Of a stretch of DNA of 64,000 bases, positions 38,102 through 52,006 are shown in pieces. The stretch is from the NCBI GenBank assembly GCA_947381905.1, contig CANCXL010000003.1, positions 4,138 through 68,137 of the forward strand. The letters run 5' to 3'. The notes under the pieces are model-generated. The model saw nothing but the letters and a program-made list of their open reading frames with translations. It had not been told where the DNA came from and did no database searches. This DNA is from an uncultured Clostridiaceae bacterium. GTDB lineage: Bacteria; Bacillota; Clostridia; TANB77; CAG-465. The translations under genes were made by a program, and so were the position numbers. Position 1 is the stretch's first letter. Every line of letters starts with the position of its first letter.

Positions 38102-39997
38102 ATGTCAGTTGCATTTGTATTTAATATTTTATTAATACTACTTTTACTAGCATTTATTGCAGCTTTCTTCTATTATAAGGTAAAAAAATCTGGTGTAGAT
38201 CAGATGGTAGAGGATAGCTTATCAAGAGAAAAGATTACATATAGTCTTTCTACAATGCAAGAATATGTTAAAAAGCAATTTGATGAAATAACAAGAATGA
38301 ACTTATATGATTTGGCATTATCTGAAGAAGAATTTGAAAGAAGAAAAAATGTTAAATACGAACTTAAAAGAGCATTAAAAGGTGCTGGATATGCAGATTC
38401 TAACGATAAAAAATATGTTAAATCGTTAATGTTTGATTTATTAAAAAATGATTATAAAGTTAATAACTTTAACATTAATCATGCAATACCTTTTAATAAC
38501 TTTAATGAATTAAAAGCACAAGATAAATTTGAAATATTAATGCACATATATAAGAAGACATACAAAGCAGAAGCTTTAACTAAAATAATAACTAAATATG
38601 CATTAGATTATCCTAAATACGAGTTTGATGCAACAGTACCTTCTTATGTTATAACAGCAAGGGAGATAGATGATATATTTACAAATGAGGTATCTCCTGA
38701 AACTTTATCATTTGAAGACAAGCTTGAAATTGTTGTTCAAAGAATATACCAAGAATATAAAGGATATAGTGTTGTTGATGATATAAGAGATATGAATATT
38801 GATGGTGTATCTGGTGGTGTATCTGGTATTCCACCATCATTTCTTGATCAATTAAGTGACATGGATGATTATTTATCTCAAATGAATGATTATAAAATAC
38901 CAATGTCATATGATTCAGTATGGATATTCTATAAAGGTAAAGCTACATATTTATCATTTTTATCATTTGGTAGTGAAGCTGAACTTAAAAGGGTATGTCA
39001 AAACATATATAAATATAACAATCCAGGACAATTATCTGAGTCTGTAGGTTATAAAATAAATGAAATGAAAGACGGTTCCAGAGTTGTTGTTTTAAGACCA
39101 AACTTCTCTGAATCTTGGGCATTCTTTGTAAGAAAGTTTGCACCACCTACACTTATTTCTCCAGAACAATTACTTGTTCATGAGAATAAAGATAATGTTG
39201 TTGAATTATTAAAATATTTAATAAGAGGAGCAAGGGTAACAGCAATTACCGGTGAGCAGGGTTGTGGTAAAACTACACTTTTGATGGCTATAATGAAATT
39301 TTTATATCCTACAATTACAATTCGTGTACAAGAAACTGCATTTGAATTACACTTAAGAAAAATTTATCCTTATCATAATATATTATCTTTAAGAGAAACA
39401 GATACTATAACTGGACAAGAAGGTCTAGATGTACAAAAGAAAACAGATGGTGGAGTTAACATCTTAGGAGAGGTTGCAACAGACCCAGTCGCTGCATGGA
39501 TGATTCAAATGGCACAGGTTGCATCAAAATTTACTTTGTTTACTCACCATGCTAAAACATTTCCAAACCTAATTACATCACTTAGAAACTCACTTTTAAA
39601 AATTGGAATGTTTAATTCAGAAAATGTTGCTGAGGTACAAGTTGTACAAGTTATAAATTTTGATATACATTTAAAAAGAGCTGTTGATGGTTCAAGATAT
39701 ATAGAGAGAATAACAGAATGTATTCCACTTGAACAAACATATAGCTATAATAATGATTATAGAAAAGTAAAAGATGTTAATCAAAAATTAGATAAATTTA
39801 TGGATAATGCTGTTGAGTATTTCCAACATATGACACAATCACAAAATTATACATATAGAAATATTGTAGAATTTGTTGATGGAAGATATGTATTTAAAAA
39901 TCCAATAAGTGAAGATAACATTAGAGCTATGAGAGATAATATGTCTGCAGAAGACATAAAGGCTTTTGATGATTTCTTAGATATAGCTTGGAGGTGA
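38102..39997 (+). CDS. CpaF/TadA-family (T2SSE/VirB11-like) secretion ATPase with an N-terminal transmembrane anchor
   Basis: Walker A ITGEQGCGKTTLLMAIM, an Asp-box-like ITIRVQETAFELHL, Walker B plus His-box GVNILGEVATDPVAAWMIQMAQVASKFTLFTHHAKT. Residues 4-26 (AFVFNILLILLLLAFIAAFFYY) are strongly hydrophobic. Confidence 0.8.
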   Translation: MSVAFVFNILLILLLLAFIAAFFYYKVKKSGVDQMVEDSLSREKITYSLSTMQEYVKKQFDEITRMNLYDLALSEEEFERRKNVKYELKRALKGAGYADSNDKKYVKSLMFDLLKNDYKVNNFNINHAIPFNNFNELKAQDKFEILMHIYKKTYKAEALTKIITKYALDYPKYEFDATVPSYVITAREIDDIFTNEVSPETLSFEDKLEIVVQRIYQEYKGYSVVDDIRDMNIDGVSGGVSGIPPSFLDQLSDMDDYLSQMNDYKIPMSYDSVWIFYKGKATYLSFLSFGSEAELKRVCQNIYKYNNPGQLSESVGYKINEMKDGSRVVVLRPNFSESWAFFVRKFAPPTLISPEQLLVHENKDNVVELLKYLIRGARVTAITGEQGCGKTTLLMAIMKFLYPTITIRVQETAFELHLRKIYPYHNILSLRETDTITGQEGLDVQKKTDGGVNILGEVATDPVAAWMIQMAQVASKFTLFTHHAKTFPNLITSLRNSLLKIGMFNSENVAEVQVVQVINFDIHLKRAVDGSRYIERITECIPLEQTYSYNNDYRKVKDVNQKLDKFMDNAVEYFQHMTQSQNYTYRNIVEFVDGRYVFKNPISEDNIRAMRDNMSAEDIKAFDDFLDIAWR

Positions 39998-40001
39998 TAA
40001 A

Positions 40002-42056
40002 GTGACTAATATAGCAATTGTATTAATTGTTGTTTCTTTAATAGGCCTCGTAGGATTACTAGTTTACTATACTATATTAAAAAGAAAATATAGTAGTAAT
40101 ACAATTCTACAATCAAAAGATACTTTAGTAATAAAAAACAAAGTTAATTTTAAAGATACTTTTGATAAGTTATATCAAGTAATGTATATGACATTTGTTA
40201 AAATGCCAATTATGAAATACTATGCTAAAAAAATAAGATTAAAGTATGAGATGTCAAATGATTATACTGAATATGAGCTTAGAAGAAACACTGGTAAATT
40301 AATGACACTTACTATAATTGTTATGTTTGTTGCTTTAGCAGTATTTGTAAATATAGTAAACGATTTATATATGACTTTAATTATAATGATTGGATTAATT
40401 ATAGTCGTAGAAAAGGTTACAGATATTACAATTACATCGGTATCAAATAAGATATTAAGACAAATGCCAGAAGCATTTACAATATTAAGACATGCATTCC
40501 ATGAACATGGAATGGTAGATGAGGCTTTAGCTGACACAATAGATGAATTAAGTGAAAAAGAGATAGCACCACAATTAAAAAGAATAAGGGAGGCTATAAT
40601 ATCTGACCAACCAGAAGTTGAACTTGAAAGATATTATGATACTGCTCCAAACAGATTCTTAAAATTATTTGCTGGTATATCATATTTAACTTATGAACTT
40701 GGAGACAGAAAAGTTGAAGATACATCAATTTATCTTAAAAACTTAAATAATATTTTAAATGAAATATATCTTGAAATATTAAAACAAGACAAACTAAAAG
40801 CTACTTTTAGAAGCTTAACTATTATAGCAGTAATTCCGCTTATATTTATTAAACCGATAGAATCTTGGGCTACAGGAAACTTTGCTGCACTATCTAATTT
40901 TTATACAAGTAGTATAGGTTTTGCAATGCAATCTATAATAATTGTATCAATATTTATGTCATACTTGCTATTAAGAGTAGTACGTGAAGATGGTGAAGAA
41001 ATAAAATTTGATAGGGTATCAAAAGTTAAGTGGCAAGAAAAATTATATAAAATAAATGTAGTGAGAATGATAGTAGATGCTTTTAAGACTAAAAAGCATA
41101 CATCAAAGTATAAAAGAGAAGTTAACTTAATAAAAGATACAAATTCATATCTTACAATAGAGTGGCTATATGTAAATAAATTTGCTTATGCGTTTGTTGC
41201 TTTTTGCTTAACAATTCTATTAATATTTAATATGAATATTATAACTAAAAACTCAGCTTATACCAAACTTAGTAATGAATTTTTATCACTTGGAAAATTA
41301 AGTGAAGATGATCAAGAGGCTGCAAAAGAAGTTGCAGATTTTGATTTAACTTATATAGAAAAGTATAAAAATAAAAATGTAACTAAAGAAGAGCTTGCAG
41401 AAAATCTAACAGACACAGCTACAGGAACTGTAGATACAGATGCTGTTGATAGAATATATGATAAAATAACAACAATAAATGGTTCATATATAAAATTTTG
41501 GCATGTTTTAATTGCATTACTTATTGCTCTTATTGCATACTATGTTCCAAATATAATGTTAACTATAAAAAACAATATTAGAAAAATGGACAAGGATAAT
41601 GAGATTATGCAGTTCCAATCTATTATATTAATGCTTATGCATATTGATAGAGTAGATGTTCAAACTATACTTGAGTGGTTATGTAGATTCTCATATGCAT
41701 TTAGAGAACCAATTGCAACATGCTTAAATAACTATGAAGCAGGTGCAGAAAGAGCACTAGAAGAACTAAAAGATTCTGTACCAAATAAAGACTTCCAAAG
41801 AATAATTGATCAATTAGAATCAGCTGTAACAAGAATTCCAGTTAAGGCAGCTTTTGACGAGTTAGAGACTGAAAGAGCCTTTTTCTATGAAAAGAGAAAA
41901 GATGCAAATGAAGCTCTAGTAAAAAGAAAAGCAACAATTGGTCAAGTACTTGGATTTACGCCTATGGTGCTTTTAATTGGTGGATATCTAGTAGCTCCAC
42001 TACTTATTGTAAGTATATTACAAATGCTTAATTACTTTAGCCAGATGGCATTCTAG
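40002..42056 (+). CDS. Polytopic platform protein with two T2SSF-like (TadB/TadC, GspF-like) repeats in one polypeptide (GTG start)
   Basis: There are two cytoplasmic helical segments, each followed by TM helices. The first is PEAFTILRHAFHEHGMVDEALADTIDEL..IAPQLKRIREAI. The second is FQSIILMLMHIDRVDVQTILEWLCRFS..FREPIATCLNNYEAG. Confidence 0.6.
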   Translation: MTNIAIVLIVVSLIGLVGLLVYYTILKRKYSSNTILQSKDTLVIKNKVNFKDTFDKLYQVMYMTFVKMPIMKYYAKKIRLKYEMSNDYTEYELRRNTGKLMTLTIIVMFVALAVFVNIVNDLYMTLIIMIGLIIVVEKVTDITITSVSNKILRQMPEAFTILRHAFHEHGMVDEALADTIDELSEKEIAPQLKRIREAIISDQPEVELERYYDTAPNRFLKLFAGISYLTYELGDRKVEDTSIYLKNLNNILNEIYLEILKQDKLKATFRSLTIIAVIPLIFIKPIESWATGNFAALSNFYTSSIGFAMQSIIIVSIFMSYLLLRVVREDGEEIKFDRVSKVKWQEKLYKINVVRMIVDAFKTKKHTSKYKREVNLIKDTNSYLTIEWLYVNKFAYAFVAFCLTILLIFNMNIITKNSAYTKLSNEFLSLGKLSEDDQEAAKEVADFDLTYIEKYKNKNVTKEELAENLTDTATGTVDTDAVDRIYDKITTINGSYIKFWHVLIALLIALIAYYVPNIMLTIKNNIRKMDKDNEIMQFQSIILMLMHIDRVDVQTILEWLCRFSYAFREPIATCLNNYEAGAERALEELKDSVPNKDFQRIIDQLESAVTRIPVKAAFDELETERAFFYEKRKDANEALVKRKATIGQVLGFTPMVLLIGGYLVAPLLIVSILQMLNYFSQMAF

Positions 42057-42110
42057 TTTAAATCATCTTAAGAGATGTTTTAATATAATTGTGTAAAGGA
42101 GGAATAAAAT

Positions 42111-42602
42111 ATGGATAACGCACAAAAAGCTATAATGATTGGTGTTGGACTTTTTGTAACAATACTTATCATAGCAGCTGTAATGCTAATTGTTAACCCA
42201 GCAATTAATTTAATAGACAATGCAGCAGGTAAAATAGGAAACCTTAGTGAAACATTTACAACTATGCTTTATTCAAAATATGATGACAGAACAGTAACTG
42301 GTGCAGAAGTTATTTCATTTGTTCAACAATATGCAGCAGATGAAAATATGATTATTGAGGTAAAACCTAACTCTAGTTCAAATATGTTACAACTTGGAAA
42401 AGCAAGAGGTAATGAGTCTTTAATTATAGATAAAGGACTAAAATATGATGATACTAATAAACAAACTAAAGTTAGTGCATTAACAGATAGCTCAAATCCA
42501 GAAACTTATGTACCATCTTCTGCTAGATACGAAGCAAAATTAATAAAAAGTTCATCAGGAGATACTGTAGTAGGAGTACAATTTGTAAGAACAAACAAAT
42601 AA
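42111..42602 (+). CDS. Pilin-like protein 1 (candidate major filament subunit, 163 aa)
   Basis: MDNAQKA-IMIGVGLFVTILIIAAVMLIV has a short polar leader followed by a hydrophobic helix of about 22 aa. It has the best SD sequence of the set (AAAGGAGG), is the first gene after the platform gene, and is followed by a 12-bp hairpin. Confidence 0.55.
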   Translation: MDNAQKAIMIGVGLFVTILIIAAVMLIVNPAINLIDNAAGKIGNLSETFTTMLYSKYDDRTVTGAEVISFVQQYAADENMIIEVKPNSSSNMLQLGKARGNESLIIDKGLKYDDTNKQTKVSALTDSSNPETYVPSSARYEAKLIKSSSGDTVVGVQFVRTNK

Positions 42603-42616
42603 TATTATATTAATTT

Positions 42617-42648
42617 CAAGGTATATAATTTTCTGGTTATATACCTTG
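42617..42648 (+). terminator. Perfect 12-bp stem-loop after the first pilin-like gene (candidate partial terminator or mRNA stabiliser)
   Basis: CAAGGTATATAA-8 nt-TTATATACCTTG. The downstream U-tract is weak (AATATTATT). Confidence 0.4.
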
Positions 42649-42736
42649 AATATTATTAAACAGTAGATATATTTTAAAGAATATATATAATACATTTTTT
42701 AAAATGTGTCTATATAGAAGGGGGGGAAGAGTAGTA

Positions 42737-43201
42737 ATGGAAGAAAACATTTCAAGAGCAATAATGATTGGAGTAACCACTCTTGTTGGAATTATGACAA
42801 TATCTGCAATTATAGTGTTCTTTAACTCAAGTTTGAGAGTAGTAGAAAACGCAAGTGGCTCAAAAGATTTTTCAACAGTTTATCGAAATGATATAGAATC
42901 TACTCTTCTTATGAGCAATTCTGGTAATTATATAAAAGGAACAAGTGTAATAAATTTAATTAGTTATTATGAACAAGATTTTAATGTAAGCATCAGTATA
43001 GCAAATATTAAGTATATAGATAAATCAGGAAATGTACAGATAATAGATAATATTGTAATTAATACAAATGATGTAAATATTAGAAAAGCAGCATATAATC
43101 TGGCTGTGCGATATATAATGGATAACCAAGACTTTACAATTTCTGTAAAAGATAATGATGAAGATATGGGTTCTAAAGAAATAACAATAAGGGGAATTTA
43201 G
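42737..43201 (+). CDS. Pilin-like protein 2 (154 aa)
   Basis: MEENISRA-IMIGVTTLVGIMTISAIIVFF. It shares an internal motif, IKGTSVINLISYY, with the other three paralogues. ATG 42737 follows GAAGGGGGGG. Confidence 0.5.
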   Translation: MEENISRAIMIGVTTLVGIMTISAIIVFFNSSLRVVENASGSKDFSTVYRNDIESTLLMSNSGNYIKGTSVINLISYYEQDFNVSISIANIKYIDKSGNVQIIDNIVINTNDVNIRKAAYNLAVRYIMDNQDFTISVKDNDEDMGSKEITIRGI

Positions 43202-43203
43202 AT

Positions 43204-44754
43204 ATGGATGGAGCATTACAAAAAATAGTATCTATAATTATTGCTGTAGTTATTTTATTTATTCTACCTATATATATAGCATATGAAAAAAGAGATGATA
43301 TTTCATATGCACTTGCACTAAAAATAACAACAGATTTTGTGGATAATGTTAATTCAAAAGGCTATATAACATCAGAAATGTATACAGATTATATCACTAA
43401 ACTTGCAGTAACTCAAAATAGCTACGATGTATATCTTGAGCATACTGCAAAAAAATATAATCCAGTGATATACTCATATACTGATGACTTAAAAACAATT
43501 AGAGCTAAATTTGATTATAATTTATATAAGGATGAATTTGGGGATGGACAAATAACTGTGTCTGATGGATCTAATGCAGGAACATATAACAACTTAATTC
43601 TTGCATATGATTTATCCGAAAAAAAATATAATGAAGAACAGATTTTAAGTGTTATCAGTTCTACAGATAGAAGTCTTTCAATTAATATGAATTTAGAGGC
43701 ATATAAAAATATGGATTATAGATCACTTCCAGCAATTGTAAGTATATACATGCCAGAAAAATCTGCGGGTGTATATACTATGAATGAGGGAGACGAATTT
43801 AGTGTAATTGTAAAAAATAAAAATACTACAATGGCAAGTGTAATATATAATGTTATTACATTTGGAGCATCTGCTAAAAATAATACAAAAATATATGTAA
43901 ATTATGGTGGTACAGTAAAAGCAGAACAATATCGAACAAAAGAAACAATTGATGAAACACCAGTTCCACCTTCAACAGGTGTAGAGCAAGAAAGTTCTCT
44001 TCTTGCATCCTACAATACAAATGGACTAGTTATGCTTCTTGAAGGAGAATATAACGATGGTTCAGTTCATTCAAATGATACTAATATATGGAAAGACTAT
44101 AGTGCAAATAATCATAATGCATTATTATCTGATTTTGATTTTAAAGATGAGTCAGGGTGGAGACATAACGGACTTCACTTTACAGGAAGAGAATATGCAT
44201 CAATTGCAGATATTGCTACTGGGGACATGACAATAGAGATTGTTGCAAGATTTGATAGTGTGTCAAATCCCGAAACTCCTGAACAATCTGTTTTAAGTAA
44301 TTTAAATGATGGAGGGATGGGACTTGTTCTTAACGAACTAAATTCTACATCGATTACTAAAAGAGGAAAGTTCTCTTTTGAGGTATATACACAAGATGGA
44401 AGTATATCTTCTGTGGTGGCAGATGAGATAGTACAAGCAAATAAGATTTACTCAATATCTGGTTCTGTAGGAAAAATGAATCTTGAATATGATGGTAATA
44501 GATTTGCATATGAAACAAGAGCACAACTTTTATCTGTAAATGGAAAAGTAGATGGTATACCATTTAACAGCACTGTAAAGCTACCTTTATCTGGATCAGA
44601 CTTTATTATTGGAGGAAATCCACTAATAGGTGTTGGAGCTCAAACAAGTTTTAATGGAACTATTTATTGTGTGAGAATATATAATAGAGCATTAACTGAA
44701 GAAGAAATAAAAGAAAATTATAAAGTAGATCAAAAGAAATATGGAATAGAATAG
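43204..44754 (+). CDS. Pseudopilin/TadE-like N-terminus fused to a C-terminal LamG (concanavalin-A-like lectin) domain; candidate adhesin subunit
   Basis: The N-terminus is IVSIIIAVVILFILPIYIAYEKRDD. The C-terminal 240 aa or so match the LamG_3 pattern (W.DYSANNHNALL.., GLHFTG.EYASI, FNGTIYCVRIYNRALTEEEIKENY). Confidence 0.65.
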   Translation: MDGALQKIVSIIIAVVILFILPIYIAYEKRDDISYALALKITTDFVDNVNSKGYITSEMYTDYITKLAVTQNSYDVYLEHTAKKYNPVIYSYTDDLKTIRAKFDYNLYKDEFGDGQITVSDGSNAGTYNNLILAYDLSEKKYNEEQILSVISSTDRSLSINMNLEAYKNMDYRSLPAIVSIYMPEKSAGVYTMNEGDEFSVIVKNKNTTMASVIYNVITFGASAKNNTKIYVNYGGTVKAEQYRTKETIDETPVPPSTGVEQESSLLASYNTNGLVMLLEGEYNDGSVHSNDTNIWKDYSANNHNALLSDFDFKDESGWRHNGLHFTGREYASIADIATGDMTIEIVARFDSVSNPETPEQSVLSNLNDGGMGLVLNELNSTSITKRGKFSFEVYTQDGSISSVVADEIVQANKIYSISGSVGKMNLEYDGNRFAYETRAQLLSVNGKVDGIPFNSTVKLPLSGSDFIIGGNPLIGVGAQTSFNGTIYCVRIYNRALTEEEIKENYKVDQKKYGIE

Positions 44755-44766
44755 GAGGAATTGTAT

Positions 44767-45171
44767 TTGGGAGATTCGTTAAATAGAGCAATTATGATTG
44801 GCGTAGGACTATTTATTACAGTTATTATCATATCTGGAATTATGTTTATATTTTCCCAAATGCAAGAAATATATAAGCATGTAGATGATACAGATACTTC
44901 GATAACATCAAAGTTTGGAAAGTATGCATCTTTTGATAATACAACAATAACTGGTCTTGATATGATTAATTGTGCAAATAAATATTATAAAGATAATGAA
45001 GTTATAGTAATGTATGGAAATATACAGCTAAATACACAAGAAGGAATAAATTATTTAAACAATGAATATGAAAATGGAAATATAAAGTATGAATATTCAT
45101 ATTCTTCTACTATTGATGAGGTAGAAGTAGATGGAATATATAAAACACAAATAAGTTTAACAAGAAAATAA
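44767..45171 (+). CDS. Pilin-like protein 3 (134 aa, TTG start)
   Basis: (M)GDSLNRA-IMIGVGLFITVIIISGIMFIF. TTG 44767 lies 8 nt after AGGAGG. TTG 44761 is too close to the SD sequence. Confidence 0.5.
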   Translation: MGDSLNRAIMIGVGLFITVIIISGIMFIFSQMQEIYKHVDDTDTSITSKFGKYASFDNTTITGLDMINCANKYYKDNEVIVMYGNIQLNTQEGINYLNNEYENGNIKYEYSYSSTIDEVEVDGIYKTQISLTRK

Positions 45172-45193
45172 AAAAGAAAGAGGTGATGATAAT

Positions 45194-45658
45194 ATGGAAA
45201 ATGCAAACGAAGCAATATATTTAGGTGTATATACAATGATATTTGTAATAGCCTTGTCTCTTACTATTTTTCTATTTTCATCACTAATGACATATACAGA
45301 AGATGCATACGAATATATGCATAAAGCTACAACTGATTCTGTTAATATATCTGGAGATGAGAATAGGCATTTAATATTAAATGGTCAAGAAGTTTTATCA
45401 TATTATTATAACTATATAAAAAAAGATAATTATTCAGATAAGAGCTACGATTCAAATACAGTAGTTACAATAAATTTAAATACAAAAAATGAAACGCCGT
45501 TAATGCTTGAAAAAGATAATGTTTCATATAAAGATTTGCTAAATAAAATTGGAATGCAAAATAAATATATTTTAACTGTTGGAAGCAATACAACAGAAAA
45601 TATAACATATATTAATATAATTAAGGCTACAGAAGAGGAGCTACAAGAGAAAATATAA
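45194..45658 (+). CDS. Pilin-like protein 4 (154 aa, most divergent)
   Basis: MENANEA-IYLGVYTMIFVIALSLTIFLF, with the internal motif ILNGQEVLSYYYNY. Confidence 0.45.
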   Translation: MENANEAIYLGVYTMIFVIALSLTIFLFSSLMTYTEDAYEYMHKATTDSVNISGDENRHLILNGQEVLSYYYNYIKKDNYSDKSYDSNTVVTINLNTKNETPLMLEKDNVSYKDLLNKIGMQNKYILTVGSNTTENITYINIIKATEEELQEKI

Positions 45659-45670
45659 AAGGAGGAAAAA

Positions 45671-46687
45671 ATGAAAGATACATTAAGTATGATTGTTGCA
45701 GTTATTTTTATTGTTGTTCTTTTAGTACTTCTTCCTTTATATAACTACTTTGAACGACAAGATGATATGTCATATAATTTGACATTAAAAACCGTTACAA
45801 TGTTTGTAGATGAAGTTGCACAAAACGGATATATTGATCAAAATATGTATGATAAATTTATTGCAAGACTTGCTACTACTGGAAATACTTATGACATTCA
45901 AATTGAGGCTAAAAAGAAGATACTTACTATGGATCCTGAAAACATAGATCCAGATACAGGTGAAGAGACTTATATAGAACAATTTAAGTCATATTATAAT
46001 AAAGATATATTTAATGATGAAACTGGAAAAACAAGTAATATTATTTCAAAAGATAATAGTTTAAAAAACAATGTTTTTTTCTTAGATGTTGGAGATAAAT
46101 TTTTTGTTACAGTAAAAAATACAAATACAACAATGGCATCAGCGCTTCTTGGAGCTTTGGTATCAAGCATAACAAAGGAAAAAGTAAATATAACATATGG
46201 TTCAACTATAAAAAATAATAACTGGGAGAATGCAGATATTAGTCAGTTATTTCAAAGTGATATTTTGGTATCTATTTCATTAGAAAATCCTAACGATCCA
46301 GAAGATAAAAACGGATATCCAGAATATAATTTTGAAAATGCAACTGATAGAAGTATTAGTTTTATAGTAAAAGTTTTAAATGCTGACTCGTCAGAAAATT
46401 TATCACAAAAAATAAAAGATAATATAAGACTTGTAGGAACAAATCCAAATTGTTATCTTAACCCATCATCAATAGAAGGAGATTCAGGTAGTAACAATGA
46501 ATTTAAAATAAAATTTACTTTAGACGATACAAAACAAAGTAGATATTTTTCAGATAATGAATATAATGTTTTTCAATGTTTCTTGCCTGCAAATATAATA
46601 CAAGGAACATTTAGTAAAAATTCGAGTGCTAGTTCACAGAAAGTATTATATAAAATAAATAGTGGAATAGAGGTACCAGAACTATAA
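45671..46687 (+). CDS. Paralogue of the 43204 product without the LamG domain (pseudopilin/TadE-like N-terminus)
   Basis: About 50 percent identity by eye over the first 80 aa or so (LLPLYNYFERQDDMSYNLTLKTVTMFVDEVAQNGYIDQNMYDKFIARLATTGNTYD versus ILPIYIAYEKRDDISYALALKITTDFVDNVNSKGYITSEMYTDYITKLAVTQNSYD). The two also share the block VKN.NTTMAS. Confidence 0.55.
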   Translation: MKDTLSMIVAVIFIVVLLVLLPLYNYFERQDDMSYNLTLKTVTMFVDEVAQNGYIDQNMYDKFIARLATTGNTYDIQIEAKKKILTMDPENIDPDTGEETYIEQFKSYYNKDIFNDETGKTSNIISKDNSLKNNVFFLDVGDKFFVTVKNTNTTMASALLGALVSSITKEKVNITYGSTIKNNNWENADISQLFQSDILVSISLENPNDPEDKNGYPEYNFENATDRSISFIVKVLNADSSENLSQKIKDNIRLVGTNPNCYLNPSSIEGDSGSNNEFKIKFTLDDTKQSRYFSDNEYNVFQCFLPANIIQGTFSKNSSASSQKVLYKINSGIEVPEL

Positions 46688-46699
46688 GGAGGTGAAAGG

Positions 46700-47878
46700 A
46701 TGAAGATAACAGACTTTGCATTAGTGTTTATTGCAATAATAATACCATTTATGCTTGTGTTATATATAAATATAACATTTACAATTAAAGCAGAAGAAAT
46801 GGAATTATATTATCAAACAGTGTTAAATTCTGCTTTAGATGATGCAGCATATGAAATGAAACAAGTTGAAAGCCAAGACAAACAAATAGATTATGGATAT
46901 TCAGATAAATTAAATAAAAAGATAAATGTTAATGCACAAGTAGGGGTGGATTCTTTCTTTGAGACATTATACAATACGTTTGGTGTTAAAGGAAATGAAG
47001 CAGGAGAAAGTTATCTTAATCTTTTTGTACCAGCTGTAGCAGTAATAGAATATGATGGCGTTAGGGTATCTAAAAACGAAACTGTTACAGGAGAGGATGG
47101 CCTAAGCATAACACAAAGAGTGTTGAAACCTAAAAGATACTTTACATATACATATTCAATAGTAAGAAATGGTGGAGAATATAGCTATGTTCAAGGAATA
47201 GCAAGTGATAATGTTTCATCTGTACACACAATTGAATTTACAATGGATAGTTTTGTTACTCATAGAGGATATGATTATGCAAGTAATGAAGAGATTGATG
47301 TAGAATCTTTTTATCTTGAAGATTCTAAAAATAATAAAAATTTAGTTATTGGAGTATATGATACAGAGTCAAAAAATAAATTGATGAATGAAATAATATC
47401 ATCCTTAAAAGATATTAGACCATCAATAATATCAAATGTTGTTGCAAGCGAACTTTCTTATGCGGTAAATGAAAACAACTATTATGCAAGACAATCAGGA
47501 GTTATATATTCATTTAATTTTCCTGCAACCACACAAGATGAATTATATAATATGGTTGATGGTGTAGGTATAGTTGCATTTATGCAAGGAATATCTGTTG
47601 GAAATAAATATTTAAATACTAAAGCTTTTGGAGTAAGTTCACTTGGAAATACAACAAGATATTATTTTACTGCTCCAATCACAGATTCACAAATTCAGAT
47701 GAATCTATATCATAAAGATACTAATTGTCCAGAGTATAGATTGTCTAGGATATCAGACATGTCACCAAGATATGCTACATCTAAACAAGAAGCAGCAACA
47801 AGTGAAACTACAGGAACACAAAGTGGAGTGAAAAAGACATTTAGAGGATTTTATCCATGTCCAATTTGTAATCCATAA
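46700..47878 (+). CDS. N-terminally anchored extracytoplasmic protein with a C-terminal Cys cluster
   Basis: The anchor is FALVFIAIIIPFMLVLYINITF. The C-terminus has NCPEY...FRGFYPCPICNP. Confidence 0.45.
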   Translation: MKITDFALVFIAIIIPFMLVLYINITFTIKAEEMELYYQTVLNSALDDAAYEMKQVESQDKQIDYGYSDKLNKKINVNAQVGVDSFFETLYNTFGVKGNEAGESYLNLFVPAVAVIEYDGVRVSKNETVTGEDGLSITQRVLKPKRYFTYTYSIVRNGGEYSYVQGIASDNVSSVHTIEFTMDSFVTHRGYDYASNEEIDVESFYLEDSKNNKNLVIGVYDTESKNKLMNEIISSLKDIRPSIISNVVASELSYAVNENNYYARQSGVIYSFNFPATTQDELYNMVDGVGIVAFMQGISVGNKYLNTKAFGVSSLGNTTRYYFTAPITDSQIQMNLYHKDTNCPEYRLSRISDMSPRYATSKQEAATSETTGTQSGVKKTFRGFYPCPICNP

Positions 47879-47916
47879 AGTTTTAAGATATAATAAAAAA
47901 GGAGGTGTAATCTAAA

Positions 47917-49239
47917 ATGGGAGAAGGTTTTGTTCCATCTTATCAAGATGAAGAAGAAAGACTTAAAGTAAGAAAAGAGAAAGACAGAAAAGATAGAATA
48001 AAAAGTATAATTATATCAGTTATAGCAAGTATAGTAGCACTTGGTATTATATTTTTAGGTTACACAATATTTAATGTAGATTATAGTAAATACGAAAAGT
48101 ACGAAGAAAAAATGGATATATATGGCTTTTCAAAAGTTTATGACAATCAAAAAGCAAATACTAAAGAAAAAGTTACAAAATCTGAAGCAGTTAAAATGAT
48201 ATTATCTTGTTTATATAATGTATCAAGCATTGATGGAATTGCAATGCCAACAGAAGAGACATATTCTAATGCTATATGGGTTGAATATGCAATAAAACAA
48301 GGAATAGTATCTAGAGAAGAGATAAATGCATCAAATGCAAATGATAAGGTAAAATATCAAGAAGTATTAGTATGGCTATATAATATAAAAGCAAAGGTGT
48401 TAAACATTGAGCCAGATACTACTGCAAACTTTAATATAAAAGATATCAATGCATATAATGCAGATCAAAAATTTGCTATATATGATTTATTAAATTCACA
48501 AGTAATTGTAGAAAATTTCAAAAGAGTTGATGGAAATAGAAGACTATATAAAGGAAAACTTAATGAACTAATAGTAAATTTTGCTGAGGAATATAATACT
48601 ATTACAGTTGGAAATGCTAAAATAAATATTAATGAAGATAAAATACCAGAAAACTCTAATATGTATCCATACACTTTAGCAAGTGTTCAAAAAGATGTAT
48701 ATGAAATCCCATTTAAAAATAATGGAAATGAAGGAGTAATTTATCCTATAGACTATTATAAAGATAATAAAGAATACTATGGACAAATTAAAACTTATGT
48801 AGAAAACTATTATAATACACTTTTAAATATAGATTATAATAGCATAAAAGCAGGAGATTTTAAAAGAAAAATAAAAAAATATGTTTACGACGAAATAGAT
48901 GACAACAAGCTTTCTTCATATATTGAATATGTAAAAAATAATCATATTAAAATGAGTGGAAAAGCAGCAGCACAACTACCATGTGTATATTTTGACGGAG
49001 AAAATTATAGAGTAAGAGTAAAGCTTGAGATAAAAATAGAATCATCTGATACAAAAGATAATTTAATATATCATGATTTAGAATCAGGCAAAACATCGTA
49101 TAATAGTGATTTAATCACTATATGTGTTGATACTATAATGCAAAAGACTGATTCGTCAGAAACTTTATTTATAAAAGAAGGAACTATAAATTCTATTATT
49201 TCAAAAACTAGTAGTAGTATAGTTAGTAAGGAGGATTAA
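47917..49239 (+). CDS. Bitopic membrane protein (charged cytoplasmic N-terminus, one TM helix, and an outside domain of about 390 aa)
   Basis: Contains EEERLKVRKEKDRKDRIKS, then IIISVIASIVALGIIFLGYTIF. A faint SLH-like pattern (VTKSEAVKMILSCL..NAIWVEYAIKQGIVS) is present but unverified. Confidence 0.45.
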   Translation: MGEGFVPSYQDEEERLKVRKEKDRKDRIKSIIISVIASIVALGIIFLGYTIFNVDYSKYEKYEEKMDIYGFSKVYDNQKANTKEKVTKSEAVKMILSCLYNVSSIDGIAMPTEETYSNAIWVEYAIKQGIVSREEINASNANDKVKYQEVLVWLYNIKAKVLNIEPDTTANFNIKDINAYNADQKFAIYDLLNSQVIVENFKRVDGNRRLYKGKLNELIVNFAEEYNTITVGNAKININEDKIPENSNMYPYTLASVQKDVYEIPFKNNGNEGVIYPIDYYKDNKEYYGQIKTYVENYYNTLLNIDYNSIKAGDFKRKIKKYVYDEIDDNKLSSYIEYVKNNHIKMSGKAAAQLPCVYFDGENYRVRVKLEIKIESSDTKDNLIYHDLESGKTSYNSDLITICVDTIMQKTDSSETLFIKEGTINSIISKTSSSIVSKED

Positions 49240-49240
49240 T

Positions 49241-52006
49241 ATGAACAGAAAAGTATTATTAATTCTCATGACTATAATAGTAACAATTTTATTGTCTGGT
49301 AATGTATATGCCTATGATAATGGAAGAGAAGTATTTGTAAGACATATAGATAAAGAATCAGGTCAAATAATTGATGGACTACAGAATTCAAATCAAGAGG
49401 TAGTAGATATAAGTGGTAATAGTTCGCTAGTATCAAATAGCACAGCAGATGATGCAAGTATTTCATATAGTGAATATTATAATTATAATGTATCTGATAC
49501 AATGAAAATTACAAAAACTCTTGTAATGCAAGTGGATGGAAAAAAATATGAATATTTAGGATATAATAAATGTACATCACCAGATTTATATACTGCATAT
49601 GATATACAAGAGCAAAAGAAAGCGTTAGTAAGAGCAGGTACTGCGTCATTAGATCAGCCATATGATAGAAATCAGGCTAATACAACATATCAAACAATAT
49701 CATCAAATAATAATGATGTAACTATAATAGATTTTTATTATTCAAAAAAGGATGCAGATAATATTAAACCACAGCTTTATTGTAATACAAGTGTATGGAC
49801 TGGAAATGAATCCGGAATAAGATCTAATGTAACATATATACCGGCAGGAGAAATGCTTAGACCATATTTTGAAACACCACGTTATTTTGTAAAAGATTTA
49901 TCATATGAAAAAACAATTGAAGGTGGTAAAGTAAAATATAAATTAAATAAGTTTGTGGTATATAGGATAGAAGAAGCATATCTTAAATCGTCAGAAAGTA
50001 AGCATATAGGAGATAGTGGTCAGATAGAGATTACAGGTGAACTTGTTGGGGATGGTCCAGCAAGTGCAATAGAAGGAATAAATAATAAATCTACTATATT
50101 AGTGCAAAATAAGGCACAACTTACAGATGAGTTAAATTATTTAGTAAATAATTTTAACAATAAAGAAAATAATAAATTTCCTGGAAGAAATGAAATAGAT
50201 CAAAGCAACGGAGATGATTCTAGTTCAAAGGATTTTGATGCCGACCTTGTAGTAAAAGCAAGAACATATAATGGATTAAGAAGCGCTAAAGGAAATGTTG
50301 TATATAGAGAATATAACGTTTTAGATGGAAATTATGGTGCAAGTATAGAGTATGAATCTAAAAATGATCACTTTATAAATGTATATACACCAGTTTTCTT
50401 AGAAAAGCCACAAATAACTACATCAAGTAATACATCAATAGATCATACATCTTTAAATTCTTCAACAGTAATTCTTGCAGATGATGCAACTTTTGAAATA
50501 AAGCTTTCTTGTAAAGATGCAGATTTTATGTATTATAATAATATTAGTCCAGAAAGAAAAGCAAGATTTGTAAGTTATTATTATCTTATCTTTGATTTTG
50601 ACGTTATACACAATGGTGTGCAATATGAAAAAGGTACAGTAATACAAATGACAAATCAAGCATTATATAATGCTGATGGTGCAACATACTTTCATGGACA
50701 AGTAGCACCAAATGAGACTTTATCAAGAGATAATTCAGAACATAAGATTATAGTATTTGCATCAGCAGATAACATGAGAGATAATGCGCTATTAAATTAT
50801 GTTGCAGATCAAGAGGTTGCTATTCAAATAAAGAAAGAGAAAGATCCTTCTGAAAGAAAATATCTAGATGATAGTGGTAACAATAAATCTAATTTCTTAA
50901 CAGATATTGAACACTCAAAGAATAATACAGATGCACAGTATACTGGCTGGGCGACTCTATATGGAGATGGATATTATTTTGCTATGGACTCTGTTACTGT
51001 AAGAACTGTATCTAAACTTTATGATTTTAAGATAACAGATTGTACAGATTTAGCATTTAAAAGTGCATTTAGAGATTCTAATACAAATGAACTTCAAGGA
51101 ATAAATTATTATTCTGGAATAAGAAGGTTATTTGTATATACTAATGCAAATAAAGAGGTAACAACATTATTTGATAGAAATAATATAAAAATTCCGGGAA
51201 CGTCAGCAACTACAACATTGCCACTTGGACCATATAAGCACTTATCTTCAACATATATTAGTGCACCAAAGCTTGGCTATAGAATCGCCTTTGACGTTAA
51301 AACAACAGGATATTATGAGCCTACTGGAAATGATTCTTCAAGCAGAAAAATAGGCATAAAACCAACATATTACTATGTATCAAAAGATGGATCTACAATT
51401 GAAAAAGATATAACACTATATTATAAGGATCAATCCGGAAAATATAAAAAATTTGTTGGTAGCGACTATTCGATATATTTTAAACCAAATGATGGATATA
51501 GATATAAGAGCAATAGTTCAACTGCAGATACATCATATTTATCAAGTAAAGAGGAAGAGCTAAAGATTGGAAAAGAAGAGTTCTTTTTAACAGATAATAT
51601 GGTTACACTAGATGATAGTGGATATATACAGTCGTGGTATGGTGAATTTAAACTTCCAAACACAACAGTTGCTGTAAAAAATGGGGATAATGTGGATAAA
51701 CATCTAAAAGATGGATACATAGGAGTAAAATTTGAGATAATATGCTATGATCAAAAACTAGGTCAAAACATATACTATGATTCAGAAAACAAAGCTGCTA
51801 GTCCAAAGACAAATACAACACAATGGGATTATGAAGGATATTTAGGCTTTTCAAACCCAGGACAGAGTGTAAATGAAAATTCAAGTTTAAGAATACAACT
51901 AGAAAAAGGAATATGGTCAATTAGCAATCAATCATTATATGATTTTGTTAAAGGAACTGTATTACTATATGATATTGATGCAAGGGCAGCAGATGATATT
52001 AATTAA
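49241..52006 (+). CDS. Large secreted protein (921 aa) with a Sec signal peptide; possible adhesin
   Basis: The signal peptide is MNRKVLLILMTIIVTILLSGNVYA-YD. The N-terminal region has a MucBP-like strand pattern (EVFVRHIDKESGQII..YEYLGYN..VTIIDFYYSKK). There is no LPXTG sorting signal or C-terminal anchor. Confidence 0.5.
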   Translation: MNRKVLLILMTIIVTILLSGNVYAYDNGREVFVRHIDKESGQIIDGLQNSNQEVVDISGNSSLVSNSTADDASISYSEYYNYNVSDTMKITKTLVMQVDGKKYEYLGYNKCTSPDLYTAYDIQEQKKALVRAGTASLDQPYDRNQANTTYQTISSNNNDVTIIDFYYSKKDADNIKPQLYCNTSVWTGNESGIRSNVTYIPAGEMLRPYFETPRYFVKDLSYEKTIEGGKVKYKLNKFVVYRIEEAYLKSSESKHIGDSGQIEITGELVGDGPASAIEGINNKSTILVQNKAQLTDELNYLVNNFNNKENNKFPGRNEIDQSNGDDSSSKDFDADLVVKARTYNGLRSAKGNVVYREYNVLDGNYGASIEYESKNDHFINVYTPVFLEKPQITTSSNTSIDHTSLNSSTVILADDATFEIKLSCKDADFMYYNNISPERKARFVSYYYLIFDFDVIHNGVQYEKGTVIQMTNQALYNADGATYFHGQVAPNETLSRDNSEHKIIVFASADNMRDNALLNYVADQEVAIQIKKEKDPSERKYLDDSGNNKSNFLTDIEHSKNNTDAQYTGWATLYGDGYYFAMDSVTVRTVSKLYDFKITDCTDLAFKSAFRDSNTNELQGINYYSGIRRLFVYTNANKEVTTLFDRNNIKIPGTSATTTLPLGPYKHLSSTYISAPKLGYRIAFDVKTTGYYEPTGNDSSSRKIGIKPTYYYVSKDGSTIEKDITLYYKDQSGKYKKFVGSDYSIYFKPNDGYRYKSNSSTADTSYLSSKEEELKIGKEEFFLTDNMVTLDDSGYIQSWYGEFKLPNTTVAVKNGDNVDKHLKDGYIGVKFEIICYDQKLGQNIYYDSENKAASPKTNTTQWDYEGYLGFSNPGQSVNENSSLRIQLEKGIWSISNQSLYDFVKGTVLLYDIDARAADDIN

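Follow-up and report, generated by a model that had tools for sequence, protein, structure and literature searches.

Four paralogous small genes in the 64,000-nucleotide stretch of DNA analysed here (the window) probably encode the subunits of a filament, one major and three minor, whose Tad-like (type IVc-like) assembly machine is specified by the genes directly upstream (Table 1). A putative filament, predicted from genes and models, is the most likely reading of the locus, and we picture its workings as follows: the hydrophobic helix of each subunit would anchor it in the membrane with the N-terminus inside, the ATPase and platform proteins would extract the subunits and use these helices to stack them, and the lectin-domain paralogues, together with the large secreted protein, would confer adhesion. 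Adhesion or cell-cell contact would be the function.

Table 1. Features of the locus, in order along the window
Feature	Position	Strand	Remarks
CpaB/RcpC-like protein, 343 aa, SAF domain, N-terminal TM helix	35511..36542	+	First gene of the module
TadZ-like protein, 235 aa	36569..37276	+	Called TadZ by structural homology (PMC11680825)
ParA/CpaE-like protein, 270 aa	37276..38088	+	Weak NCBIfam matches: CpaE_hom_Actino 0.0027, ParA 0.095
CpaF/TadA-like assembly ATPase, 631 aa	38102..39997	+	N-terminal TM helix, ~270-aa N-terminal extension
Platform protein, 684 aa, polytopic	40002..42056	+	About 8 TM helices by hydropathy scan
Major pilin-like subunit, 163 aa	42111..42602	+	N-terminus MDNAQK-AIMIGVGLF...; ATG behind AAGGAGG (strong RBS)
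16-bp hairpin	42615..42650	+	Directly 3' of the major subunit gene; found by terminator scan
Minor pilin-like subunit A, 154 aa	42737..43201	+	N-terminus MEENISR-AIMIGVTT...
TM-anchored 516-aa protein	43204..44754	+	C-terminal concanavalin-A/Laminin_G_3 lectin-like domain (Laminin_G_3 2.6e-10)
Minor pilin-like subunit B, 134 aa	44767..45171	+	TTG start; N-terminus (M)GDSLNR-AIMIGVGLF...
Minor pilin-like subunit C, 154 aa	45194..45658	+	N-terminus MENANE-AIYLGVYT...; leader without basic residue
TM-anchored 338-aa protein	45671..46687	+	Paralogue of the 516-aa protein (phmmer 1.5e-22 to 3e-22)
TM-anchored 392-aa protein	46700..47878	+	Starts M-K-I-T-D5-F-A-L; conserved C-terminal H..C...C..C motif
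Bitopic 440-aa protein	47917..49239	+	Basic cytoplasmic N-terminus; conserved TANB77 operon member
Secreted 921-aa protein	49241..52006	+	Last gene of the operon; Sec-type signal peptide; DUF5704-related

Four paralogous genes in a Tad-like setting

The initial annotation had placed the four genes in one family of pilin size, and this is confirmed: at 134-163 aa they are real paralogues whose homology is above chance. Pairwise phmmer comparisons (Z=1000) join the major subunit to minor B (5.5e-11) and to minor A (2.6e-7), and minor A to minor B (4e-4); minor C gives no significant pairwise match to the other three, and a profile built from 58 of its orthologues matches them at 4.9e-6, 1.1e-5 and 1.3e-3. 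Residues A7, I8, G11 and V12 of the N-terminal motif are invariant in the four-way alignment, as are G64 and Y74 of a second, 'T-G' block, the shared internal block that had been proposed. The same four-class pattern (A-I-x-I-G-V, hydrophobic helix, later T-G block) recurs in 256 non-redundant relatives from 78 related loci, which hold 59, 67 and 58 orthologues of minor A, B and C, respectively; the major subunit has 809 homologues and 1106 representative clusters. The ATG at 42737 is preferred as the start of minor A over an upstream ATG at 42704, and the TTG start of minor B sits seven bases past an AGGAGG.

We infer that the gene at 42111 encodes the major subunit, from its strong ribosome-binding site and from a hairpin that is kept after major-class genes only. 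In the window this hairpin has a minimum free energy of -19.5 kcal/mol (z = -4.1); in related loci, the 90 nt 3' of the gene have a median of -20.4 kcal/mol for the major class versus about -12.5 for the minor classes. We read it as a probable attenuator or terminator that would set the major:minor ratio.

The suspected Tad-like setting is borne out by what lies directly upstream (a CpaB-like gene, two ParA-like genes, a CpaF-like ATPase gene and a fused platform gene), and the pilin-like genes come right after those for the ATPase and platform, with gaps of 2-101 bases. The CpaB-like protein matches Pfam SAF (3.5e-7), ChapFlgA (3.2e-8) and TIGR03177 pilus_cpaB (1.1e-5, under its cutoff). Among PDB entries the ATPase is nearest to CpaF (5.5e-9), with archaeal GspE at 0.13 and VirB11 at 0.12; it matches T2SSE (9e-4) and TIGR03819 (1.6e-5), and its Walker A sequence, GEQGCGKTT, is visible. 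Neither the TadZ-like nor the platform protein has a Pfam match, and the latter, which we read as a fused TadC-TadB, has no PDB sequence match either.

TANB77 loci and plasmid-borne modules

Judged from its gene architecture, the window locus is a member of the family that Kim et al. (Nat Commun 2024; PMC11680825) described from an uncultured gut clade as the 'TANB77 pilus gene cluster', with 'pilin-like proteins' 932-938. The gene order is that of the window and the protein sizes are near-identical: CpaB (358 aa), TadZ (231), CpaE (280), TadA (640, 1 TMH) and the TadC/TadB halves (693, 8 TMH), all assigned in that paper by structural homology, compare with 343, 235, 270, 631 and 684 aa here, and the single-TM proteins that follow are of 143-621 aa there and 134-516 aa in the window. 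Both come from gut MAGs of uncultured Clostridia. The 'pilin-like' label was drawn from context, size and topology only, processing not being analysed: the paper mentions no prepilin peptidase, leader motif or missing Gly/Glu, and 'prepilin' and 'peptidase' have no occurrences in it (PMC11680825).

The 516-aa protein, a candidate adhesin or tip subunit, has a conserved N-terminus (M-E-D-N-L-Q-R...P..Y...E-K-K-D-D.S-Y). By gene order and size only, the class of the 338-aa protein appears to include 'pilin 938', whose N-terminal quarter is reported to be TadE/PilV-like in structure (PMC11680825). In 63 orthologues of the 392-aa protein, K2, T4, D5, L8, F10, P16, H338, C343, C387 and C390 are at least 90% conserved. 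The 440-aa protein has 67 orthologues in related loci, no Pfam match and no counterpart detected in plasmid pTHECO01, and the 921-aa protein begins with a signal-peptide-like N-terminus, MNRKVLLILMTIIVTILLSGNVYA.

The 14-gene order from a dacF-like gene to spoIID is identical in gut-metagenome contigs, a similar gene order is found in 75 genomes, and both gene set and order are kept in 78 TANB77-type loci as well as on plasmids of Firmicutes. Whereas the cluster has been called exclusive to TANB77 (PMC11680825), the module is not: it is carried on plasmids of Thermobacillus, Paenibacillus, Lysinibacillus, Alkalihalophilus, Butyrivibrio and Clostridium botulinum (pTHECO01, pBpOF4-01, pPPM1a, a pBsph-like L. 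sphaericus plasmid, pCY186 and C. botulinum pST0210E1). This plasmid distribution is new here, as are the major-subunit call with its hairpin, the unmatched head domain and the copies of the head in phage fibres (see below); the TANB77 pilus cluster and the labelling of its genes as pilin-like were already known (PMC11680825).

Nearly every window gene has an orthologue in the plasmid modules, in the same order. The major pilin family is recognised on plasmids at E values of 1e-10 to 5e-24, and the window ATPase is 37-60% identical to those of the plasmids. Compared with pTHECO01, identity is 59.8% for the ATPase ('TadA'), 36% over full length for the platform (a 690-aa protein), 36% for the CpaB-like protein (to a SAF protein), 29% for the major pilin, 26% over full length for the TadZ-like protein (to a 233-aa protein at the same position), 28% for the ParA/CpaE-like protein (to an annotated ParA), 30% and 34% for the 516-aa and 338-aa proteins (both to a 184-aa protein) and 27% for the 392-aa protein (to a 342-aa protein); over 300 aa, the 921-aa protein shares 26% identity with the DUF5704 protein that closes the plasmid modules. 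Only two small pilin-like genes are present in the plasmid modules, versus four in the window, and all are annotated 'hypothetical protein'; an SLH-domain protein and a GGDEF protein come after most of these modules. While the window copy is chromosomal, the pTHECO01 module lies near genes for a relaxase, a coupling protein and a Tcp-like transfer set, that of the L. sphaericus plasmid near those for a relaxase and a coupling protein, and that of pPPM1a near a relaxase gene; pBsph-like plasmids are conjugative. No functional study of the plasmid module was found in the literature.

Subunit architecture and the N-terminal motif

Each subunit consists of a polar, acidic N-terminus of 6-8 residues, a 22-residue helix that is uniformly hydrophobic (mean H 0.8-0.95) and, turning amphipathic, extends to about residue 57, and a small alpha/beta head. 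The AlphaFold model of the major subunit (pLDDT 84; 90.7 for the head alone) has a helix over residues 3-57 followed by a beta domain. Neither model resembles a pilin or any other solved (PDB) or viral (BFVD) structure (best E 0.24-1.9, TM about 0.2-0.3), and the term 'pilin fold' therefore rests solely on overall architecture.

This lack of a structural or HMM match to any pilin would suit proteins that are not filament subunits but form a bitopic, static envelope scaffold, or anchor the large secreted and lectin-domain proteins; so would the missing linked peptidase gene and the charge counts, which are neutral or acidic on both sides of the helix and thus leave membrane topology ambiguous. 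We nevertheless consider such a scaffold unlikely, bearing in mind that one of the genes has a high-copy expression signature (strong ribosome-binding site, conserved hairpin), that a single major paralogue accompanied by several minor ones is typical of pilins, and that the helix, of some 55 residues, is half hydrophobic and half amphipathic. Furthermore, phage and prophage tail-fibre proteins carry a copy of the head domain, with matches that span exactly the soluble part (residues about 28-161, 38-54% identity), as would befit a target that is abundant and exposed at the surface.

The hallmarks of bacterial pilins that had been reported missing (Gly at -1, Glu at +5, the Flp motif G/xxxxEY) are indeed absent from the four proteins, and among the 256 TANB77 sequences the conserved position is Ala in 237, Leu, Ile, Val or Thr in 14 and Gly in none, position +5 is V/I/A/L/T, and +1 to +12 are free of Asp and Glu. 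The accompanying proposal, that the N-termini are archaeal class III rather than bacterial signal peptides, is not supported, and the initial interpretation as a whole is partly supported. The leaders (MDNAQK, MDEDNLSR, (M)DESSNK, MEESANE) are acidic or neutral, not basic; throughout the 58 sequences of the minor C class, position -2 is E/Q/D/T/N/G and never K/R, and the leader has a net charge of -2 to -3. In plasmid homologues a basic residue can follow the conserved position, after Ala in P. polymyxa (MNNASSALKVAAG) and after Gly in Butyrivibrio (MGGSLSEGLRTVFA). When 40 N-terminal fragments were searched, the Flp_Fap, TadE, N_methyl, Class_IIIsignal and Pilin_N HMMs gave no match even at E<=10, and an N-terminal profile found no pilin, Flp or archaellin among solved chains.

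A true class III signal peptide, cut after Ala by an unlinked, archaeal-tolerant A24-family peptidase to leave a mature I-M-I-G-V, would also make these proteins pilins and differs from our preferred explanation in processing only. We regard it as possible though rather doubtful. In its favour, the Ala is nearly constant, three of the four classes have K/R just before it, a hydrophobic run of at least 20 residues comes next, and the leader is as long as in type IVa prepilins. That in TANB77 Gly never occurs at this position and that Leu, Ile, Val or Thr can replace Ala is more in keeping with a residue for helix packing than with a peptidase site; A-x3-G in A-I-x-I-G-V may be a small-xxx-small packing motif at the start of the helix. 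Against cleavage stand also the basic-free minor C leaders, the K/R placement in the plasmid homologues, a leader as conserved as the helix, and the other TM-anchored proteins of the operon, its larger pilin-like members included, which have no site comparable to the Ala motif. As initially reported, no A24-family gene is present in the window, where all the polytopic ORFs fall into other families (SecY, SecD/F, FtsX, DAGK and the platform protein); nor is there an A24-like ORF within 10 kb of the 78 loci, on five plasmids to a distance of 15 kb, or in the whole of pTHECO01. By itself this is uninformative, because prepilin peptidases, considered universal among type IV filaments, are often encoded elsewhere, and tadV is frequently unlinked (PMC6668835). 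Since every type IV filament system characterised so far relies on a prepilin peptidase, the prior favours cleavage. On balance we lean slightly towards retention of the short acidic N-terminus over its removal by a classical A24 peptidase cutting after Ala; if so, the acidic residues at positions 2-5 could take over the role of Glu5.

A recent archaeal origin of the pilins or locus, or an archaeal-type leader retained from an Epd-like Tad ancestor, is very improbable. Archaeal prepilins tolerate Ala at -1 and a missing Glu at +5, and one of the 40 N-terminal fragments matches the Arch_flagellin HMM (E=0.076); however, the leaders are acidic where archaeal ones are basic, the ATPase is nearest to a bacterial enzyme, and the named homologues and recovered genome loci are all from uncultured Clostridia/Bacillota MAGs or 'Clostridium sp.', with the plasmid homologues all Firmicute. 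Epd and Flp pilins are short and lack a head, so the head domain of the window pilins points to a derived rather than an ancestral state. In support of the archaeal reading, descent of Tad systems as a whole from an archaeal Epd-like system has been inferred (PMC6668835).

Comparison with known filament systems

The Tad/Flp (type IVc) pili of Caulobacter, Aggregatibacter and Pseudomonas share with the window a CpaF/TadA-type ATPase, a CpaB-like SAF protein, ParA-like TadZ/CpaE proteins, a TadB/TadC-type platform, a major subunit gene and several minor ones that follow the machine genes and, possibly, an unlinked peptidase. The window differs in that it lacks a 40-80-aa Flp-type pilin, its subunits being larger and headed; in that the G/xxxxEY motif and matches to the Flp_Fap and TadE HMMs are missing; in that the platform halves are fused and the ATPase carries its TM helix and N-terminal extension; and in having no secretin, as expected for a monoderm. 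The N-terminus of Flp pilins reads A-I-E-Y-G-L, and a by-eye alignment with Flp sequences offers a lead: A-I-[MTY]-[ITF]-G-V resembles it, with Glu-Tyr swapped for hydrophobic residues.

Archaeal type IV pilins and archaellins, cut by FlaK, PibD or EppA, resemble the window proteins in their short leader, small residue (which can be Ala) and long hydrophobic helix without Glu at +5, followed by a globular head; they differ in that the window leaders are acidic, with one class devoid of K/R and Ala never replaced by Gly in TANB77, in that no solved archaeal pilin or archaellin is matched, and in the bacterial CpaF type of the machine.

The thin (type IVb) pilus of IncI plasmid R64 is an accessory mating pilus with variable adhesin-like subunits, and is alike by analogy only, as a plasmid-borne filament module beside a conjugation system. 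By this analogy we hypothesize that the plasmid module may serve in mating, as an accessory pilus beside a Tcp-type conjugation system; in TANB77 the module is a fixed chromosomal copy. R64 differs in being T4b rather than Tad-like, in its Gram-negative hosts, in its canonical prepilins and in having its own peptidase, PilU.

A paralogous family of pilin-sized proteins

The region 42111-45658 contains four small ORFs on the plus strand, with one 516-aa ORF in between; we label their products major, minor A, minor B and minor C (see the table). When the four proteins are aligned, A7, I8, G11, V12, G64 and Y74 are invariant; these columns show that the motif at the N-terminus and the further block around T-G, both described in the initial annotation, are real. 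Pairwise phmmer searches (Z=1000) link major to minor B (5.5e-11), major to minor A (2.6e-7) and minor A to minor B (4e-4). Minor C is related to the others at profile level only: the profile of its orthologues scores 4.9e-6, 1.1e-5 and 1.3e-3 against the other three, with class-to-class comparison scored as HMM versus sequence. On the phmmer scores and the minor C orthologue profile, the proposal that the four are one paralogous, pilin-sized family holds beyond chance.

Coordinates of the operon, its members and nearby genes (window positions; the starts of the four small genes were chosen from the ribosome-binding site, RBS, and homologues)
Feature	Position	Strand	Details
dacF-like D-Ala-D-Ala carboxypeptidase gene	34121-35338		Operon flank
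14-gene operon	35511-52006	+	Between dacF-like carboxypeptidase gene and spoIID
CpaB-like SAF protein	Upstream of pilin-like set		SAF 3.5e-7; TIGR03177 1.1e-5
Two ParA-like proteins	Upstream of pilin-like set		
CpaF-like ATPase	38102-39997		631 aa; N-terminal TM helix; CpaF 5.5e-9
Platform protein	Upstream of pilin-like set		684 aa; about 8 TM helices; no sequence-level match in PDB search
Major subunit gene	42111-42602	+	163 aa; ATG at 42111 behind AAGGAGG
Hairpin	42615-42650		16 bp; z = -4.1
Minor A gene	42737-43201	+	154 aa; ATG at 42737 (upstream ATG at 42704 not preferred)
Large TM-anchored paralogue	43204-44754		516 aa; C-terminal Laminin_G_3 lectin-like domain
Minor B gene	44767-45171	+	134 aa; TTG at 44767, seven bases after AGGAGG
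Minor C gene	45194-45658	+	154 aa; start at 45194
Large TM-anchored paralogue	45671-46687		
TM-anchored protein	46700-47878		392 aa
Bitopic protein	In operon with four small genes		440 aa
Secreted protein	In operon with four small genes		921 aa
spoIID and M23 peptidase gene	52103-53949		Operon flank
Two adjacent genes for small TM-anchored proteins	61508-63055		Downstream of PolC-sized gene; phage-tail-lysozyme PF18013 4.7e-38; glucosaminidase PF01832 4.4e-12

The major subunit has 809 homologues, none with an informative name (the few named ones are from 'Clostridia bacterium' MAGs), and a representative-protein search gave 1106 clusters. Some related genomes carry its gene in two tandem copies (locus L004, 9468-10480; locus L023, 10001-10980; and other loci). 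We also observed family members in which the pilin is fused to extra domains: one 474-aa protein (P0232) has a C-terminal extension that, judged by eye, is like a formylglycine-generating-enzyme/sulfatase-modifying domain, and another of 501 aa (P0244) combines a polytopic N-terminus with two head domains.

In the AlphaFold model of the major subunit (81 sequences; pLDDT 84), a helix spanning residues 3-57 is followed by a small alpha/beta domain; modelled separately, the head (residues 29-163; pLDDT 90.7, pTM 0.83) comprises a helix and an antiparallel sheet. Residues 8-29 are hydrophobic throughout (mean H 0.8-0.95; muH about 0.06), and residues 30-47 are amphipathic (muH 0.17-0.43). The models reproduce the general pilin 'lollipop' shape for which the initial annotation had proposed a test. 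Even so, neither the full-length nor the head-only model had a Foldseek match at E<0.2 in the PDB or BFVD, pilins included, and the weak top matches were to NTF2/SnoaL-like proteins and adenovirus hexon (TM about 0.2-0.3). Family profiles run against PDB sequences did not match any solved pilin or archaellin. As modelled, the head domain has a fold that appears to be absent from the PDB and BFVD libraries searched. The first of the four genes behaves as a major-subunit gene; it has a strong RBS and a hairpin directly downstream. Across related loci, the region 3' of major-class genes has a median folding energy of -20.4 kcal/mol, versus about -12.5 after minor-class genes.

Operon, plasmid and phage settings

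The window is Firmicute chromosome (25-32% G+C) with ribosomal protein genes, secY, spo0A, ftsH, secDF, yqfD, mreB and a PolC-sized gene. Among PDB sequences, CpaF proteins are the sole significant relatives of the ATPase; archaeal GspE reaches 0.13 and VirB11 0.12. Matches of the first operon protein to the CpaB and SAF models are weak. A membrane-anchored assembly ATPase is unusual among type IV filaments: here, the N-terminal TM helix and an extension of roughly 270 aa lie ahead of the CpaF-homologous core (residues 274-546), and the extension is kept in plasmid homologues from about residue 25-47 on. The two large TM-anchored paralogues have a common N-terminal signature, ...P..Y...E-[KR]-x-D-D.S-Y, and highly variable C-terminal parts (223-1244 aa in related loci). 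We view them as candidate variable adhesins; by gene order and size, they appear to be the class of 'pilin 938' from the immunotherapy study. The 392-aa protein starts M-K-I-T-D5-F-A-L and has no leader; T4 and D5 are 98% conserved, with Asn for Asp5 in some plasmid homologues. Its conserved end, H338..C343...C387-P-x-C390, has no Pfam match and resembles an Ada-type zinc-binding module.

In TANB77-type genomes (TANB77 being an uncultured gut clade) the operon is fixed between its two flanks, which are sporulation and cell-wall genes and are the same in several metagenome contigs. A SpoIIIA-like sporulation channel, which the dacF and spoIID flanks might bring to mind, was rejected on the grounds that neither the sizes nor the content of the genes fit and that plasmids carry the module too. 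Further along the window, the two genes at 61508-63055 encode predicted cell-wall hydrolases.

Loci of this type have been published before as encoding a predicted pilus. The TANB77 pilus gene cluster of Kim et al. 2024 comprises CpaB (358 aa), TadZ (231), CpaE (280), TadA/CpaF (640, 1 TMH) and TadC/TadB (693, 8 TMH); after these come seven single-TM proteins of 143-621 aa, termed 'pilin-like' (PMC11680825). The window has the same order and nearly matches it size for size (343/235/270/631 with 1 TM/684 with 8 TM). Our 75 genome loci are all from uncultured gut Clostridia or 'Clostridium sp. CAG' genomes, and human-gut contigs have identical 14-gene synteny. In the published cluster, TadZ, CpaE, TadA and TadC/TadB were assigned by structure, and the small proteins were called pilin-like from context, size and topology only; the leader, the peptidase and the missing Gly and Glu are not treated there (PMC11680825).

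A tblastn search of PLSDB with the ATPase identified 34 plasmids at >=80% coverage; among the matches listed, identity was 37-60%. The hosts include Thermobacillus composti (59.8%), Alkalihalophilus pseudofirmus OF4, Cohnella, Paenibacillus, Cytobacillus, Sporosarcina, Lysinibacillus sphaericus, Clostridium argentinense, Butyrivibrio proteoclasticus and C. botulinum. Module loci L085-L093 lie on pTHECO01, pBpOF4-01, pCY186, a pBsph-like plasmid, pST0210E1 and pPPM1a. In most of six loci the order is SAF, a ~233-aa protein, ParA-like, ATPase and a ~685-aa platform, then proteins of 137-161, 118-138, ~180 and ~330 aa, SLH, DUF5704 and GGDEF; the C. botulinum and Butyrivibrio loci deviate from it in places. 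pTHECO01 carries orthologues of nearly every gene of the window operon (identity 60% for the ATPase, 36% for the platform, 36% for SAF, 29% for the major subunit and 26-34% for the larger proteins), and the TANB77 major-class profile matches plasmid proteins at 1e-10 to 5e-24. The published description of the cluster as 'exclusive to TANB77' is therefore true only at high identity.

Near the module, pTHECO01 encodes both a relaxase and a coupling protein together with a Tcp-type transfer set; the L. sphaericus plasmid encodes a relaxase and a coupling protein, and pPPM1a a relaxase. pBsph has VirD4/VirB4/VirB6-like genes and 'one pilus assembly ATPase' (PMC4363355), and the pBsph-like p1593 is conjugative by experiment (PMC13239906). 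These settings suggest that the plasmid module is an accessory pilus for mating or adhesion, and the GGDEF neighbour in most loci that c-di-GMP may control it; by analogy, the plasmid context suggests a role in adhesion or mating contact like that of the accessory thin pilus of R64.

The representative-protein search also returned proteins in which just the soluble portion of the major subunit is present (about residues 28-161, at 38-54% identity). These head copies, homologous to window 42195-42599, include P0256 (L079, 10001-11491), P0211 (L082-L084, 10001-10588) and P0245; one is fused to collagen-like repeats and another adjoins a collagen-like fibre gene. They sit in phage or prophage modules for tail fibres and lysis, whose G+C is about 26-28%, with PBECR/MuF giant proteins, an Acb2/Tad1-like protein, endolysins and an integrase as neighbours. 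The prophage contig of L084 and the contig with pilus locus L017 are both 69,796 bp long. Viral contigs scanned with the pilin and head-domain alignments gave no matches, nor did tblastn against GenBank phages. The arrangement suggests that phages of these bacteria tip their fibres with the pilin head domain, which may serve pilus-directed receptor binding by mimicry. Copies of the head domain in phage fibres also support its surface exposure, and point to the pilus as a surface structure with which phages interact.

The N-terminal leader and its possible processing

Anchored alignments of 289 family members yielded the class consensus sequences MDNAQK-AIMIGVGLF (major), MDEDNLSR-AITIGVSVF (minor A), (M)DESSNK-AIMI[GA]VGIF (minor B) and MEESANE-AIY[IT]GVYVF (minor C). 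If the conserved Ala is numbered -1 of a putative cut, this position holds Ala in 237 of 256 non-redundant sequences; the others have Leu (7), Ser (5), Val (3), Thr (2) or Ile (2), and none has Gly. Position -2 is K/R in the first three classes, bar 8 of 198 sequences, and is E/Q/D/T/N/G, never K/R, in minor C. Asp and Glu are absent from +1 to +12 in all 256, and +5 is V/I/A/L/T. The reported absence of Gly(-1) and Glu(+5) thus extends from the four proteins to the whole TANB77 set; the Glu-Tyr of the Flp G/xxxxEY pattern is missing from the window family as well, as had also been noted.

The leaders are acidic or neutral in all classes (net charge 0 to -3), and in the major class the leader is as invariant as the helix. 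The leaders of the family cannot be longer; a stop codon often lies directly before Met1. Plasmid homologues relax the N-terminal pattern further: that of P. polymyxa (MNNASSALKVAAG) has Lys after Ala, and that of Butyrivibrio (MGGSLSEGLRTVFA) has Gly then Arg. In the other TM-anchored operon proteins, too, Met is followed by an acidic residue somewhere in positions 2-5, but a [KR]-Ala site is missing (class starts M-E-D-N-L-Q-R-V-F for the 516-aa protein, M-K-D-N-L-S for its 338-aa paralogue and M-K-I-T-D-F-A-L for the 392-aa protein). A Flp- or EppA-like cut three residues earlier, between MDNA and QKA, was dismissed since its -1 and +1 positions are unconserved in the minor classes. For A-x3-G, with which the helix begins, the best reading is a helix-packing motif.

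The initial annotation had favoured an archaeal class III signal peptide. At the level of the motif, Ala at -1 and a missing Glu at +5 are more acceptable in archaeal prepilins, and three of the classes do have K/R-Ala before a hydrophobic stretch without Glu. However, the leaders are acidic or neutral, one class has no basic residue and Gly is never used in TANB77; moreover, no pilin HMM of either domain matches, and the ATPase is of the bacterial CpaF type. Neither Class_IIIsignal (PF04021) nor Pilin_N (PF07790) matched any of 40 N-terminal fragments at E<=10, Arch_flagellin (PF01917) matched 1/40 (E=0.076), and no PDB pilin or archaellin was matched by profile or by fold. Relatives with a name, and all genome loci, are uncultured Clostridia/Bacillota MAGs or 'Clostridium sp.', and the full-length plasmid matches, among those listed, are all Firmicute. 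These results do not support the archaeal-signal reading. Since Epd and Flp pilins are short and lack a head, the headed subunits look derived, not ancestral. An archaeal Epd-like ancestor is inferred for Tad systems in general (PMC6668835), a descent that is deep ancestry common to all Tad loci.

Inspection of ORF families and polytopic ORFs confirmed that the window has no A24 peptidase gene. None was found in the 10 kb on either side of 78 related loci (together 1.5 Mb), in which all polytopic ORFs were clustered and scanned for the GxGD-K motif, nor within 15 kb on five plasmids, nor anywhere on pTHECO01; Pfam searches of the remaining polytopic plasmid ORFs were negative. A tblastn search of plasmids with ComC of B. 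subtilis found 834 A24 records; neither Paenibacillus nor Lysinibacillus appeared among the genera with >2 of them, a rough negative in that short TadV or FlaK types could be missed. This suggests that module-bearing Paenibacillus and Lysinibacillus plasmids mostly have no PilD/ComC-type gene. A chromosomal comC is usual in Bacillales. For that reason, and because tadV is commonly unlinked (PMC6668835), the missing linked A24 gene does not settle the matter of processing.

The strong prior expectation that a prepilin peptidase serves every type IV filament speaks for cleavage after the Ala. Against it stand the residue statistics, a basic residue that changes place, a site not shared by the other operon proteins and the failure to find a linked peptidase; we lean slightly towards no cleavage at the Ala. 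Only tentatively, and judging it rather unlikely as a whole, do we extend this to the hypothesis that the Firmicute-wide Tad-like module is a distinct branch of type IV filaments with leaderless, peptidase-independent pilins. Such subunits would keep a short acidic N-terminus, Met1 then Asp/Glu at 2-5, and these acidic residues would replace the pair of Glu5 and processed N-terminus, which to our knowledge is otherwise universal in type IV pilins, so that no A24 enzyme would be needed. The same hypothesis would have the module act as an accessory mating/adhesion pilus on Gram-positive conjugative plasmids and be fixed in the TANB77 chromosome, and would have it targeted by phages with tail fibres that end in a pilin-head copy.

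A probable Tad-like filament among known systems

The four proteins are probably the major and three minor subunits of a Tad-like filament. Anchored through the hydrophobic N-terminal helix, the subunits would be extracted and polymerised by the membrane-anchored CpaF-like ATPase and the fused platform, and the lectin-domain paralogues and the DUF5704-related secreted protein would be adhesive components. Context and architecture support the pilin reading, which is already published for the TANB77 clade.

We describe a Tad-like lineage, widespread in Firmicutes, whose subunits have none of the sequence hallmarks of known pilins and may not need a prepilin peptidase. Subunits without Gly at -1 and Glu at +5, and with no linked peptidase gene, offer a test of how universal the prepilin-peptidase/Glu5 rule is; that they match no pilin HMM or known fold also matters for the type IV filament field. 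The plasmid copies contradict the published claim of TANB77 exclusivity and, being present in the cultured and tractable Paenibacillus polymyxa M1, Lysinibacillus sphaericus and Alkalihalophilus pseudofirmus OF4, they open the question to experiment, although TANB77 itself is uncultured. The pilin-like proteins of TANB77 have been linked to cancer immunotherapy response (PMC11680825), and their mature start and assembly route matter for any use of them.

Pfam and NCBIfam gave no matches to the four proteins, and the PF26613 flag precomputed for one homologue could not be reproduced. At E<=10, Pfam returned scattered helix noise for the 40 N-terminal fragments (e.g., His1_capsid 5/40 and DUF6672 4/40, all non-significant; no literature was found for DUF6672). 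Bacterial type IV pilins and pseudopilins (N_methyl, PF07963) have a short basic leader with Gly at -1, and the window family has neither; N_methyl matched no full protein at E<=1 and none of the 40 fragments at E<=10. On the other hand, the family agrees with them in its N-terminal helix, which in those pilins is ~50 residues long with a hydrophobic half and then an amphipathic half. Flp/Tad (type IVc) pilins are 40-80 aa when mature, whereas the window family is 134-163 aa with a head domain, and the Flp_Fap (PF04964) and TadE (PF07811) HMMs matched neither the full proteins nor the 40 fragments. Aligned by eye, A-I-x-x-G-V would correspond to the Flp sequence A-I-E-Y-G-L with Glu-Tyr replaced, a lead only. 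In gene context, namely a CpaF/TadA ATPase, a TadB/C platform, TadZ/CpaE and CpaB, the window family agrees with the Flp/Tad systems.
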